DNA of 64,000 nucleotides from Escherichia coli (lineage in GTDB: Bacteria; Pseudomonadota; Gammaproteobacteria; Enterobacterales; Enterobacteriaceae): assembly GCF_965641715.1 (NCBI RefSeq), contig NZ_OZ282453.1, one strand, 5' to 3'. A program made the position numbers. Positions 20,501 through 26,500 of this stretch are shown here, piece after piece; the first letter of the stretch is position 1; every line of letters begins with the position of its first letter.

Positions 20501-23500
20501 ATGTGCAATTGATGAAGACAATAAAGATGCCACTGTTTATCAGTCAGGTCTGTATAACGTCATTGTTTATCATCACACAGGAAAAGTCGCCTTAATGAAA
20601 GAAGGCCAGTTTGTGGGTTATTTAAAATGAAGGAACAAAGGAAAATACCCCTGACGCATATTATGATTATCGGTGCGTTTATTTTTGCCTTCTTGCAAGT
20701 AGTATTATTAGCCTCCCTGGTTCACGCTGTGAATGTTAACAATGAAATCCAGGAAGGCTTATTTCAGTCGGGGCGCATTATGGTAGAAAGTTTGCAGCAT
20801 ATTCTTTCGGTGCAAACGGGAATTAACTGATTTTCACCCCGCCCGATGATGACAGCAGCCGGAGAGATTTTCGATAATCGGGCAGTCGGCGCTGTCATCA
20901 CCGGGGCAGGCATTCGCCAGCGCCAGTAGCTGGTTGCGCATAGATTGCAGTTCTTCGATATGCCGTTCGATCTCCGCCACCTTCTCCAGCGTACGACGTT
21001 TGACGTCGGCACTGTGACGCTGCGGGTCGTTAAACAGATTCACCAGCTCGCCGCTCTCTTCCAGGTTAAAGCCCACCTGGCGCGCCTGGCGCAATAAGGT
21101 CAATTCGTTGAGATGCTGCTGCGTGTAGGTTCGATAACCATTTTCGCTGCGCATCGGCGGCGTCACCAGCCCCTTCTCTTCATAGAAGCGAATGGCTTTG
21201 CTGGTCAGGCCGGTAATTTTTGCTACATCGCTAATGTTCATCGTTCGCGCAACGCCTCCTGTGCTTTGTTAAAGGGTTTCAACAGATAATCCAGCACGCT
21301 TTTTTTGCCGGTGCGGATATCGACCGTCGCCACCATACCGGGGAATATCGGAAACTGCTGTTTGCTTTTGTTTTCCAGATGGTTGCTGAAAGTGCGAATG
21401 TACACCCGATAGTAATAAACATCGCGCCGCACTTCATCCTGAACGGTATCCGGTGAAATCACCGCCACTTCCCCCGGCAGACCACCGTAGATGGAGTAAT
21501 CGTAGGCGGTTATTTTCACCAGCGATTTTTGCCCCGGATGGATAAACGCCACATCGCGCGGGGAGATTTTTGCCTCAATCAGCAGTTGCTCATCCAGCGG
21601 CACGATGGTCATCAGTTTACCACCGGGGGCAATGACGCCGCCAACTGTGGTGACGTCAATATCCTGAACAATGCCACGAACTGGCGCAGTAAAGTTGAGC
21701 CTGGTGAGGGAGTCTTCACGCCCACGGATCACCGAACGCTGGGTTTCCACTTCCGCATTGGCTTTCGCTAACTCTTCCCGCGCCTGAACGTAGTATTGCG
21801 TGCGCACGTCGCTGAGTTTGTTTTCCAGTTCATTGGCCTGGCGTTGCAGGCGCAGTACTTCGACGCTGCTCGCTGCCCCCTGTTTTACCAGCGGCTGGGT
21901 CATCGCCAGTTCGCGATTGACCAGACTGATCCCCTGCGTCAGCCCGGTGGTGGCTTTGTTCAACCCGTCGCGGCGAGTGTTGTACAACGCCGTTTCCGAC
22001 TCGATAAGTTCGGGGAATTTATTCAGTTCGTCAGGGAAGACCAGCGGTTTATTGCTCACTTCCGCCCGCAGCCGCGCCGAGGTTGCCAGCGCCGCGTACA
22101 GCCGCGACATCGCTTCCTGGACGTCGGATTCCGTTTTGGTGCGGTTAAGCTGCGCCAGCGGCTGGCCCTGTTCGACAATATCGCCAACTTTCACGTCGAG
22201 ATGATACAGAATTCCGCCTTCCAGCGACTGCACCACCTGTTCGCGCCCGGAGGGTTCTACCGTGCCGCTGCCGGTGGTGACTTCATCAAGCTGGAAGTAC
22301 CACGCCCAGCCGAGAAAGCAGAGCAGCATCACAGAGGTAACACGTACCGCCAGCGCCGAACGCGGCAGGCGGGGTTCAGTCAGGCCACGGTTATATTGCA
22401 GTTGTCCGTTCATGCGGCAGACCCCTTATTCTTCTCCTGCAACACCACCCGTCGCGCCGTGGGTTCGCCCTGTTCACGCAAAATGGCCTCTTTCGCGCCG
22501 TCCATCACAATCCGCCCCTGATCCATCACGATAATGCGGTCCACCAGTTGCAGCATCGCCGTGCGGTGGGTAGCGACGATCAGCGTGCGATGCCCAATCC
22601 ACTGTTTCAGTTGTTCGATTAAATGCGCTTCTGCCATTTCGTCCAGCGAGGCGCTGGGTTCGTCGAGCAGCACGATATTGGGTTGAGAGATAAGTAGCCG
22701 CGCCAGCAGCAGCGTTTGCCGCTGGCCACCAGAGAGGCCAAATCCTCCTTCCTGAATCATGTAGTTGAGACCGTTTTTCTGCTTCTGCACAAAGGGCAGC
22801 GCTCCGCTGAGGGTTAACGCGCGTTCGATATCTTCATCGCTGGCTTCCGGCATCCCCATGGTGAGGTTTTCCCGCAGCGAACCAAAGAACAGTCGCCCGG
22901 TCTGGCTGAGTAGCCCCATGTCTCGCCGCAGATCTGCCGGATCAAGCTGCCCGATACTGATGTTATCCAGCAACACCTGCCCCTGCTGGGCGATACGCAT
23001 TCCGGCGAGCATTTGCAGTAGCGTCGATTTACCCGCGCCGTTGCGCCCGAGAATGGCGATTTTCTCTCCGGCCTGAATGTGGAGTTTGCCGATCGCCACA
23101 TCGGCAATCTTCTCTTCTTCGTCGTAATAAAAGATAGCGTTGCTGAACTGATAATTACCGTGCAGCACCGCTTTATGCACCAGTTTGCCGTGTTCCGGCT
23201 GATCCACGGGGCGCTTCATCAGTTCATCAAGGCCGTTACGTGCTACTTTCGCCTGCTGCCAGCGCGAGAGCACGCCGGATATCTGCGACAGCGGCGCGAT
23301 GGTGCGCGAAGCCAGGATCGTCGTCCCGACCAGTGCGCCGGTGGTCATGTCGCCGTTCATCACCATAAAGCAGCCCACCAACAGCACCACGACGTAGACG
23401 ATGGATTGCACTTCCTGGGTCCAGGTGAGCAGTAGCCCGGTGAGAAAACGTTGCTTCATGCTGATGGACGAGGCCACGTCGTTGGTGTGATTCCACTGAT

Positions 23501-26500
23501 TCTGAAAACGCTGTTCAGCGCGAAGCAGTTTAATATCTTCAATCGACTGCACGGCTTCCACCAGCGTAGCGTTGCGTACCGCTGACTCGCGCATTCCTTC
23601 GTTCGCCAGCCGCGCCAGCGGGCGTTGCACCAGCAGGCCGGGGATCACCAGCAACGGCAGCGCCAGCAAAACCACCAGCACCAGCCAGCCGCCGATCATC
23701 CACAAAATAAAGACAAACAGCAGGAAGAATGGCAGGTCCGCCACCGCGCCGATGGTGGTGGACGTAATCAGCTCCCGCACTGATTCCAGTTCGCGGATCT
23801 GCGAGATAAACGATCCGGTGGATTTCGATCGCACGTTGTTTTTCAGCCGTAATGCGTGACCAAAAACGCGATCCGAAATACGCAGATCCGCCCGCTTGCC
23901 GATCACATCAGAAAGATGCGTACGCACCATGCGCATACAGAACTCAAACAGGATCGCCATCATCACCCCGGCGAAAAGCACCCATAGCGTCGGATAGGAC
24001 TGCGCAGGAACCACCCGATCGTAAACCTGCATCGAGAAAATCATCGCTGCCAGCGCCAGCACGTTCGCCACCAGTGACGCCAGCATAATATCGCCATAGC
24101 GCCGCCAGTCTTTTAGCGAGAGGTTCCAGAACCAGTTCGCCTGATACGGGCGAATATAGTCATCCACCCGCGCGTCAGGGATGGCGCTGAGAGGGCGCAG
24201 CAGCGCCAGTTCGACGATTTTATCCTCGACATCCGCGACGTTAAGCGTGGTTTCCAGCCCTTCGTCACCGCTGAACTGAACGCTGATATTGTCATGATTG
24301 TCGCGACGGGTGATCACGCCAATCTGCTGATTATCAAACACCGCGATCAGCGGCAGACGCCAGGGGTTAAGCGAATCGGCGGAAAACTCCACCAGCCGTA
24401 ACCCCATTCCCAACTGCCGCGCCATGTCGGTGAGCAACTCTTCCCGCTTGCTGTCGCGCTCCCAGTTGACGGTTGCGCGCACATTCTCCTGAGAAAAATC
24501 AAGGCGATAATAGCGCGCCACGGCGATCATCGCCTCCAGCCAGGCTTCCACGGACTGGGCATTTTTTTTCATTATCTACACCACCATCAACTGATGATTC
24601 GCCAGCAAAGTGGCGAGGTCGGTGTGCACGCCCGTCAGCGTGACCACGTTAGTTGTCGCAAAAGTGCCGCCCGTGCCGTCGCGGTCGATCTGCACGATGG
24701 TGTCGCTGCCGCTCTGGGTGACTTTGACAAAGTCACCGATGTTTCCGGCCTGCGCATCCAGCGTTGCCACGCCGTTGACGTAGCTGGCTTTGCCGTTGCC
24801 GGTGTAGCCGCTGCCCTGTAACAGTTCACGAATATCAATGCGATCAGTGTCGGCGGTGCCTTCCCATGTCCCTACCGTAAAGCCATTCACCACGTCTGAG
24901 CCGTTGCCTCCGGTGGCGTCGCTGGCGTTGAGCAGTTTATAGAGCAAGGTGTCATGGCCGCCGTTGCCGATGTTGAGCGTGTCGTTGCCGCCGCGCCCTT
25001 CAAGTTGGTTATCGCCGCTGCTGCCGGTCAGAATGTCGTTAAAATTCGAGCCGGAAATGCCTTCGATATTGGTAAATGTCGAGGTGTTAAAACCGGTGGC
25101 CTGCGCGGCGGTGCTGCTTAAGTTAGCCGTCACGCCCACCGTCGAAAGCCGGAAATCAACCACGTCCATCCCGCCGTTCGCCAGCCACGTTCCGGTGCCG
25201 GAGCTGTACACCCAGCCGCCGGAACCGTCGTAAGTGTCGGTGCCTGCGGTGGCAAAGAAGGTGTCGTTATAGCCGGTGCCGACGAACTTGCCGTTGTTAC
25301 TCGCGGTACCCGCTTCAGCGCTGAGATCGTAAGCGTGAGTGGCATCGGTGGCCTGTAAACCGCCCCAGCTGGTGTTGACCGTCTGGTCGATATTGCTGGC
25401 GGTGGTGCCGGTGGATTTGATCAGCACCGCGTTGTAGGTTTCTCCGGCATTCAGCCCGTAGAAGTTGACCACCGCCGAGGTGTCGTTAACCCCCATCCCC
25501 GACTGCGGGTTAATGATTTGCGTGGCGACCAGCACTCCCGCCGAGTTGTACAGCTTCACGGTATTGCCGTAATAGACGTTAATGCCGTTGGGATCGGTGA
25601 TGCGCAGGTGTAGCGAAGTGCCGTAGCTCACCGTGTTGGTGTTGCGGATCAGGAACACGCTGCCCGACTGTTTGGTCACCAGCACATCCACCGCGCCGTC
25701 CCAGTCGTAGTCCATTGCCGCCACGCCGCTGGTGGTACCGCTCTGGCTGCCGCCGAGGGCTGATTGTGTCCAGTTGCTGGCACCACCAACGTTGGTGTAA
25801 AGATACGATTGTCCGGTCTGGGCGATACGGGCGATATCCATCAGGCCGTCATGGTTCCAGTCCACCGCCAGGCTAAACTGGCTGGCGTAGGTGGTTGCCG
25901 TTGCGCCCACCGCCACCGGGCTACCCAGTACGCCGTTGGTGTTGAATAACAGCGAGCCGTAGTTAGCTCTTCCCTGGCTGGCGGGCAGGAAGAGATCCAT
26001 ATCGCCGTCACCATCGAAATCGGCCCAGGTCATGGAAACGCTGCTGCTCATAGCGCCACTGCCCGCCCCGCTCAGGAAGGTATTGGTGGTGTTCTGCCCC
26101 CAGACAAACGTCCCATTCCCCTGGTTGATGAGCGAAGATAGCGTGTAATAGTTGTTCAGGTTGTAGGTGTGCTGAACCAGGTCGATCCTGCCGTCATTAT
26201 TCAGATCGACGCCAGAACCTTCGTTGAGCGAAAGATACCCCGTCACCGCCCCGCCCACCGTGGCGCTACCGCCGCTGTTCGACGTGGTGGAGTTACCTAC
26301 CAGCGTACCTGCGTTGTTCCACAGGAAGGTGTTGGAGTCCGGCCCGCCCGCGTCGCCAATCCAGAAGTCGAGATAGCCGTCGCCCTCTTTATCAAATGCC
26401 ACAATCGAGCCATACCACGTCAGCGTGCCGACGGTGACCAGAATGGCGCTGGAAAACGTACCGTCACCGTTATTGGTAAAGCCGTTGATATAGCCTGTAC

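Follow-up and report, generated by a model that had tools for sequence, protein, structure and literature searches.

LapB-like type I secretion ABC transporters, LssB included, have been described as a distinct subgroup that serves retention-module adhesins and is separate from the HlyB-like transporters (Smith et al. 2017/2018, bioRxiv version). According to that study the N-terminal domain of LapB lacks both the cysteine of C39 peptidases and the tryptophan of the HlyB type, and LapB-like transporters are defined operationally as those encoded near LapG and LapD homologues. In Escherichia coli O157:H7, O-island 28 (OI-28) carries genes for a type I secretion system (T1SS), namely Z0608, Z0609, Z0615, Z0634 and Z0635, corresponding to ECs_0540-0544 in strain Sakai. 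Experiments have shown that OI-28 encodes a T1SS/RTX adhesion system that is required for adherence and colonisation and is responsive to RstA and Ca2+. The functional OI-28 paper from 2025 names the ABC transporter gene hlyB28 and does not discuss an N-terminal C39-like domain. A literature search for the adhesin name SiiEA yielded one relevant paper, where it occurs only in a gene table.

The window analysed here is a stretch of 64,000 nucleotides from E. coli (contig NZ_OZ282453.1 of assembly GCF_965641715.1). Its transporter is identical to ECs_0543 of O157:H7 Sakai, annotated as lapB, in 714 of 720 residues, and the two loci share the ybaT-cueR chromosomal site and the gene order. The locus is E. 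coli OI-28 and the transporter is ECs_0543 'lapB', or Z0634 'hlyB28'. The adhesin gene differs between strains: it is one intact reading frame of 6929 codons here, split into ECs_0541 and ECs_0542 in Sakai, and a pseudogene in strain TB06052.

Gene arrangement and the adhesin substrate

The genes are ordered as TolC-like outer-membrane protein (OMP), giant BapA-related RTX adhesin, ABC transporter and membrane fusion protein (MFP) (Table 1). The adhesin gene lies directly upstream of the transporter gene, with its stop codon 3 nt before the transporter start, and the start of the MFP gene overlaps the transporter stop (ATGA). ABC transporter, HlyD-family MFP and TolC-family OMP are thus encoded together, as in a tripartite type I secretion system. 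The succession of adhesin, ABC transporter and MFP recurs in distant relatives within the Enterobacterales, and in one of these (L006) the transporter is likewise paired with an adhesin carrying BapA_N and RTX repeats. The start and length of the 720-residue transporter are annotated identically by PGAP in E. coli TB06052, 14EC033 and Sakai.

Table 1. Features of the secretion locus, in positions of the window
Feature	Position	Strand	Evidence
HlyD-family MFP, 391 aa	21238..22413	-	TIGR01843, 327 bits (cutoff 209)
T1SS ABC permease/ATPase, 720 aa, LssB/LapB type	22410..24572	-	ORF; TIGR03375, 836.9 bits (cutoff 693)
Nucleotide-binding domain core, residues 497-640	22653..23084	-	PF00005, 2e-27
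ABC transmembrane domain, residues 162-423	23304..24089	-	PF00664, 1.6e-31
Linker/elbow, residues 129-161, with nearly invariant PDARVDxYIxPY..W motif	24090..24188	-	Family conservation
Predicted N-terminal C39-like domain, residues 1-128, non-catalytic	24189..24572	-	Profile against PDB, AF2 model, Foldseek
Ile84 codon, aligned with catalytic His position (HlyB H83)	24321..24323	-	Profile alignments
Ala10 codon, aligned with the C39-peptidase catalytic Cys (PCAT1 C21) and HlyB Tyr9	24543..24545	-	HMMER alignments
Giant adhesin substrate, 6929 aa (PGAP: BapA-related adhesin SiiEA)	24576..45365	-	Intact ORF
RTX nonapeptide repeats near adhesin C-terminus, residues 6772-6806	24948..25052	-	PF00353, 1.5e-5, 25.3 bits (gathering score 23)
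Adhesin BapA_N prefix-like domain (retention-module type), residues 5-132	44970..45353	-	PF22783, 8.2e-20
Sole TAAG motif of the adhesin, residues 97-100, inside BapA_N	45066..45077	-	
TolC-family outer-membrane component, 451 aa	45468..46823	-	PF02321, 1.1e-47; annotated TolC family protein

The adhesin is a giant Ig-repeat protein with a BapA_N module and not a pore-forming toxin. The RTX repeats that the preliminary description had placed at its C-terminus were recovered (GSSGDNQLEGRGGNDTLNIGNGGHDT), and a double-glycine leader was searched for without result, there being no GG, GA or GS within the first 40 residues. LapG and LapD were looked for among the annotated genes covering the gene content of the window and in the 10 kb downstream of two relatives' loci (L005 and L006), and neither was found. 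Regulated release in the style of LapA may therefore not apply here.

A side observation is that Enterobacterales such as E. coli show no LapG or LapD nearby and yet have kept one TAAG site within the retention module.

Fold of the N-terminal domain

Comparisons based on the transporter sequence as such gave little signal. The Pfam model PF03412 (Peptidase_C39) scored 15.5 bits on the full protein and 19.2 bits on the N-terminal domain, both below the gathering score of 22. With phmmer, residues 1-155 retrieved from PDB a marginal match to PCAT1 (E = 0.041) and did not retrieve HlyB. These searches did not decide the matter, which called for a family profile and a predicted structure.

A profile of the domain built from 39 relatives matched PDB entry 3b79 at 8.9e-12, HlyB's C39-like domain (CLD; 3zua) at 2.4e-7 and the C39 domain of PCAT1 (7n87) at 1.2e-5, with ComA and LahT at about 2e-3. 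The AlphaFold (AF2) model of the domain has a pLDDT of 87.2, and Foldseek placed it first with 3b79 (E 2.6e-7, TM 0.76), 3zua and 7n87, then with HlyB (7sgr), PCAT1, LahT and ComA; at least the top 20 matches were C39-like or C39 structures. From profile and model together, residues 1-128 are predicted to fold as a C39-peptidase-like domain. The relationship to C39 that the preliminary description had proposed is thereby borne out.

The best match in both profile and fold, 3b79, is the C39-like domain of a toxin-secretion ABC transporter of Vibrio parahaemolyticus. It shares only 19% identity with the domain studied here but is likewise non-catalytic at both positions, with Pro in place of the Cys and Ser in place of the His. 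We know of no functional data for this structural-genomics entry.

Catalytic positions and family assignment

The preliminary description had started from the lack of cysteine in the first ~130 residues of the transporter. The lack is real: residues 1-211 are free of cysteine, and the only two cysteines, C212 and C401, are both in the membrane domain. By itself it proves nothing, because a cysteine-free stretch of 130 residues is expected with a probability of ~0.22 at a typical content of 1.15% and of ~0.70 at the protein's own content of 2/720. As a statistical signal the absence was rejected, since chance alone gives it in ~22-70% of cases. One to three cysteines at scattered, non-conserved positions occur within the domain in 35 of 126 relatives. 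HlyB has a cysteine near its N-terminus and yet its C39-like domain is non-catalytic.

On the sequence evidence, the informative fact is which residues occupy the aligned catalytic positions, rather than the cysteine-free stretch. In alignments at 14-28% identity, Ala10 takes the place of the catalytic Cys and of HlyB Y9, Ile84 that of the catalytic His, and Val78 that of HlyB W77, the Trp typical of HlyB-type CLDs. The substitutions are shared by the family: among 127 relatives the Cys column holds P in 60, A in 36 and S in 13, with C in just one, and the His column holds I in 70, V in 37 and L in 17, with no His within two columns on either side in any of them. From the loss of both catalytic residues it follows that the domain cannot cleave a leader peptide, which agrees with the earlier claim of a C39-like domain that is not a catalytic peptidase.

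This bears on whether the transporter could be a peptidase-containing exporter of bacteriocins or peptides (PCAT/AMS type) that cleaves the leader of its cargo. The weak Pfam Peptidase_C39 match and the significant profile and fold matches to the peptidase domains of PCAT1, ComA and LahT (Foldseek E from 1e-4 to 2e-6 for these active domains) would fit such a role. Against it stand the residues in the Cys and His columns, an MFP and a TolC-like OMP in the same locus, and a substrate with C-terminal RTX repeats in place of a double-glycine leader. The bacteriocin_ABC model TIGR01193 also stays below its cutoff (255 against 524 bits), and its alignment begins at residue 161 and leaves the N-terminal domain uncovered. 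Export of this type is extremely improbable, and placement in the RTX-adhesin class rather than among bacteriocin exporters stands. Cysteine-protease chemistry in the domain is refuted by the sequence.

The family models also separate the transporter from HlyB. It passes the LssB model TIGR03375 (836.9 bits, cutoff 693.1, aligned over residues 10-701) whereas the HlyB model TIGR01846 gives 387.7 bits against a cutoff of 725.55. A canonical HlyB-type exporter of an RTX toxin, with a CLD that works exactly as in HlyB, could nevertheless be argued for from the full-length alignment with HlyB (residues 10-700, E 4e-80), from the HlyB CLD as the second-best profile and structural match, and from the name hlyB28. 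Such an exporter is very improbable, given that Val78 and Ile84 replace W77 and H83, that the family columns hold E/V/Q and I/V/L at these places, that the substrate is an adhesin with BapA_N rather than a toxin, and that the literature sets LapB-like apart from HlyB-like transporters. Judged by family model, residue criteria and the adjacent giant RTX adhesin, the transporter is assigned to the LapB/LssB-like subgroup. The earlier description of it as 'HlyB/LapB-type' runs two separate subgroups together and is to be refined to LapB-like, as equivalents of His83 and Trp77 are missing and the HlyB model is not passed.

Among existing names, KEGG-type 'LapB' labels are attached to relatives and Sakai has the gene name lapB. 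The clusters of distant N-domain relatives are called generically 'type I secretion system permease/ATPase' (Pantoea, Tatumella), with one KEGG-style 'LapB', and no bona fide LapB or LssB turned up among them.

With all catalytic residues lost, the domain might be a decaying relic without a role, secretion being carried out by the transmembrane and nucleotide-binding domains alone as in PrtD and HasD, which have no such appendix. A faster divergence of the domain points in the same direction: in two relatives (P0019 and P0020), for example, it is 67-72% identical while the whole protein is 81-82% identical. However, the domain is full length in 127/127 relatives examined, its fold is confidently predicted, W11 is kept in 124/127 and P74 in 127/127, and the SGD motif and PDARVDxY are conserved; in the linker, D133 and R135 are invariant and D137 and Y139 reach at least 90%. 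Two of the six substitutions relative to Sakai fall within residues 1-155 and both are conservative. Decay without function is, on this evidence, very improbable.

Proposed secretion model and comparison with known systems

The transporter is very probably the ABC exporter in the inner membrane for a T1SS of the LapB/LssB type, that of OI-28, with a non-catalytic C39-like domain and a mode of secretion analogous to that of known systems. From the analogy with HlyB and LapB we infer that the dead peptidase domain docks the substrate by binding, in the cytoplasm, the adhesin's unfolded, RTX-proximal C-terminal part. The uncleaved C-terminal signal would then enter the ABC-MFP-OMP conduit first, powered by an ATPase whose motifs are intact (Walker A GRNGAGKS, signature LSGGQ, Walker B IVLLDE and H-loop ATHR). 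Extracellular Ca2+ would fold the RTX repeats. With its N-terminal BapA_N module still caught inside the outer-membrane pore or behind it, the adhesin would be exposed at the cell surface. The prediction is that export of the adhesin begins with its C-terminus and involves no cleavage, and that the BapA_N module probably keeps it at the surface. The interpretation offered in the preliminary description is supported, refined to the LapB-like subgroup.

It is also conceivable, although rather unlikely, that the LapB-like N-terminal domain is, rather than another dead-C39 version of what HlyB has, a separate adaptation with a binding surface of its own for a feature specific to giant adhesins, and that in Enterobacterales such as E. 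coli retention and release of the adhesin are possibly under a different mechanism. Candidates for such a surface are the near-invariant Trp11, a neighbour of what was once the catalytic position, the loop bearing SGD, and the PDARVDxY linker, which is invariant. Being conserved, W11, SGD and PDARVD are in any case targets for mutagenesis of LapB-type recognition of giant adhesins.

An exporter with a non-catalytic N-terminal domain of the LapB/LssB type is an already known and ordinary feature. What the analysis adds is that the OI-28 adhesin exporter belongs to the LapB/LssB subgroup, with a fully degenerate N-terminal appendix that is neither a peptidase nor an HlyB-type CLD, and that the label hlyB28 should be corrected towards 'lapB-like'.

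The active C39 domains of PCAT1, ComA and LahT are homologous in fold to the domain described here, but they have a Cys/His pair and cleave a double-glycine leader, whereas this system has neither the residues nor the leader. The C39-like domain of HlyB (3zua, and 7sgr for the HlyB/D complex) has the fold in common with it, with the catalytic Cys replaced in both, and the substrate of HlyB is an RTX protein with an uncleaved C-terminal signal, the adhesin likewise being an RTX protein. HlyB retains His83 and Trp77, the transporter has Ile84 and Val78. With respect to LapB of Pseudomonas fluorescens and LssB of Legionella pneumophila, the differences are that no gene for the LapG protease or the LapD receptor was found in the window or beside the loci of two relatives, and that the OMP is encoded upstream of the adhesin. 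Like LapB and LssB, the transporter has an N-terminal domain without the Cys and the Trp; it passes the LssB model, and it too serves a giant RTX adhesin that carries a retention-type module at its N-terminus.

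The transporter's N-terminal domain

Searches with the single sequence match the N-terminal domain (residues 1-128) of the ABC transporter to the C39 peptidases only weakly. Pfam Peptidase_C39 gives 15.5 bits with the full protein and 19.2 bits with residues 1-155, both below the gathering score of 22, and the PDB match of residues 1-155, to the peptidase domain of PCAT1, is marginal at E = 0.041. Relatives of the domain were therefore gathered (153 matches among 1.84 billion representatives, plus close full-length homologues) and thinned to a diverse set, with 39 sequences aligned. 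The profile of this alignment matches the peptidase C39-like domain at the N-terminus of a toxin-secretion ABC protein from Vibrio parahaemolyticus (3b79, E = 8.9e-12, profile positions 8-125), HlyB's C39-like domain or CLD (3zua, E = 2.4e-7, positions 6-127), the C39 domain of PCAT1 (7n87, E = 1.2e-5) and the peptidase domains of ComA (5xe8, E = 1.7e-3; 3k8u, E = 1.8e-3) and LahT (6mpz, E = 2.8e-3). An AlphaFold2 model based on the same alignment is confident (mean pLDDT 87.2, above 90 across most of residues 11-130), and Foldseek comparison of it with the PDB places 3b79, 3zua, 7n87 and the HlyB structure 7sgr at the top, with PCAT1, LahT and ComA next (E between 2.6e-7 and about 1e-4). Profile and fold thus agree on a kinship with C39, as the preliminary description had proposed, and an N-terminus unrelated to C39 can therefore be dismissed.

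Residues were mapped by HMMER alignments and by a MAFFT alignment of 127 relatives with reference sequences, and the two agree. The position of the C39 catalytic cysteine (C21 in PCAT1, Tyr9 in HlyB) is Ala10 here and holds proline in 60 relatives, alanine in 36, serine in 13 and cysteine once. At the position of the catalytic histidine (H83 in HlyB) there is Ile84, with isoleucine, valine or leucine in 124 of the 127, and no relative has a histidine within two columns of it. The tryptophan typical of HlyB-type CLDs (W77) corresponds to Val78, and to glutamate, valine or glutamine in the relatives. The family has conserved residues of its own, namely Trp11 (124/127), Pro74 (127/127) and SGD at residues 101-103. 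An almost invariant PDARVDxYIxPY lies in the linker that leads to the membrane domain. The domain is a C39-like fold without the catalytic residues, and Ala10 and Ile84 bear out the claim that it is non-catalytic.

That claim had been based on the lack of cysteine in the N-terminus, which is true yet weak evidence and does not count alone. C212 and C401 are the sole cysteines of the transporter, which leaves residues 1-211 with none. The chance of finding no cysteine in 130 residues is about 22% at ordinary cysteine frequency and about 70% at that of the transporter itself, and 35 of 126 relatives have cysteines at scattered positions in the domain. Walker A, signature motif, Walker B and H-loop of the ATPase are all intact.

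The operon and its substrate

The start and length of the transporter are identical in the PGAP annotation of E. coli TB06052, 14EC033 and O157:H7 Sakai. It begins 3 nt past the stop of the giant adhesin ORF, and at its other end its stop and the next gene's start overlap in ATGA. Together with the TolC-family gene (OMP), further upstream beyond the adhesin, and the HlyD-family adaptor gene (MFP), the locus comprises a complete tripartite type I secretion system (T1SS). The order adhesin-ABC-MFP is repeated in distant Enterobacterales relatives.

Features of the locus (window coordinates or residues)
Feature	Position	Strand	Remarks
YadA-anchor trimeric autotransporter-like ORF	18368..20107	plus	579 aa, long internal duplications
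Putative lipoprotein gene	20208..20630		140 aa, after the autotransporter-like ORF
cueR start/MFP stop overlap (ATGA)	21238..21241
HlyD-family adaptor (MFP)	21238..22413	minus	NCBIfam; directly downstream of transporter
Transporter	22410..24572	minus	720 aa
ABC membrane domain	transporter 162-423		Pfam
ATPase domain	transporter 497-640		Pfam
Giant adhesin	24576..45365	minus	6929 aa, upstream of transporter
BapA_N prefix-like domain	adhesin 5-132
TAAG motif	adhesin 97-100 (45066..45077)
RTX nonapeptide repeats	adhesin 6772-6806
TolC-family gene (OMP)	45468..46823	minus

The adhesin carries Ig-like and FG-GAP repeats and a single cysteine, its C-terminus contains RTX repeats as first described, and no double-glycine motif occurs in its first 40 residues. 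BapA_N is also present in the one relative adhesin with Pfam data. The only TAAG motif of the adhesin lies within the BapA_N module, at a position similar to the LapG cleavage site of LapA-type adhesins. LapG and LapD were found neither within 10 kb downstream of two relatives' loci nor in the annotation of equivalents of the window.

The adhesin gene is one unbroken ORF here, two ORFs in Sakai (ECs_0541, ECs_0542) and has an internal stop in TB06052. It is intact and about 400 codons shorter in 14EC033, so the repeat number varies. Its GC content is 59-63%, compared with about 50% in the flanks.

Work on HlyB and LapB suggests how export might proceed. The dead peptidase domain would dock the adhesin by its unfolded C-terminal region, the C-terminal signal, left uncleaved, would enter first, Ca2+-driven folding outside the cell would draw the chain through, and the N-terminal BapA_N module would keep the adhesin at the outer-membrane pore.

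O-island 28 and its surroundings

ECs_0540-0544 of O157:H7 Sakai occupy the identical site between ybaT and cueR, and the ABC protein, annotated lapB there, is identical to the transporter at 714 of 720 residues; the locus is O-island 28 (OI-28). Among 5426 complete E. coli genomes of varied origin, 959 have at least 80% of the cueR-MFP-ABC stretch. A paper of December 2025 named the genes tolC28, rtxA28, rtxB28, hlyB28 and hlyD28 and found that epithelial adherence and mouse colonisation require OI-28, with RstA and Ca2+ as activators; the C39-like domain is unmentioned. The PGAP name of the adhesin is 'BapA-related adhesin SiiEA', and siiEA figures in an older paper as an adhesin locus in strain UMN026. 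OI-28 is absent from ExPEC and EAEC genomes according to the 2025 paper, whereas an earlier one reports the siiEA locus in ExPEC UMN026 and an EAEC isolate.

The 124-bp ybaT-cueR intergenic region of K-12 MG1655 (4870..4993 of that locus), compared with window positions 21238..21400 and 46824..47160, is a scar left by deletion of the island, in which about 28 bp from downstream of ybaT abut the final ~100 nt of the MFP gene, the latter with a 1-nt deletion; the sequence just upstream of K-12 cueR is therefore a remnant of the T1SS adaptor gene. cueR overlaps the MFP gene, and OMP, adhesin, ABC, MFP and cueR follow one another closely on one strand; strains with the island may therefore transcribe the copper regulator together with the secretion operon, or couple its translation to that of the operon. 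Compared with K-12, there is a second insertion, between cueR and ybbJ, and it contains the autotransporter-like ORF, which has 379 amino acids in TB06052 and 338 in Sakai and is a pseudogene in 14EC033.

Class of the exporter

Among the NCBIfam models, TIGR03375 (LssB-type T1SS permease/ATPase) passes its cutoff of 693.1 with 836.9 bits over residues 10-701. TIGR01846 (HlyB type; 387.7 bits, cutoff 725.55, residues 12-703) and TIGR01193 (bacteriocin cleavage/export; 255.3 bits, cutoff 523.85, from residue 161 only) remain below theirs. This score for TIGR01193, the LssB match and an RTX-bearing substrate without leader peptide agree with the proposed RTX-adhesin class as opposed to a bacteriocin exporter. 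The label 'HlyB/LapB-type' holds in its LapB part; the HlyB part fails on TIGR01846, Val78 and Ile84. The earlier interpretation is thus supported and refined to a LapB/LssB-like transporter, not of the HlyB type. Both the secretion system and this class have already been described. According to Smith et al., the N-terminal domain of LapB has neither the cysteine of C39 nor the tryptophan of the CLD, and LapB-like transporters, LssB among them, cluster apart from C39 and HlyB-type CLD transporters; the residue pattern of the present transporter matches that described for LapB.
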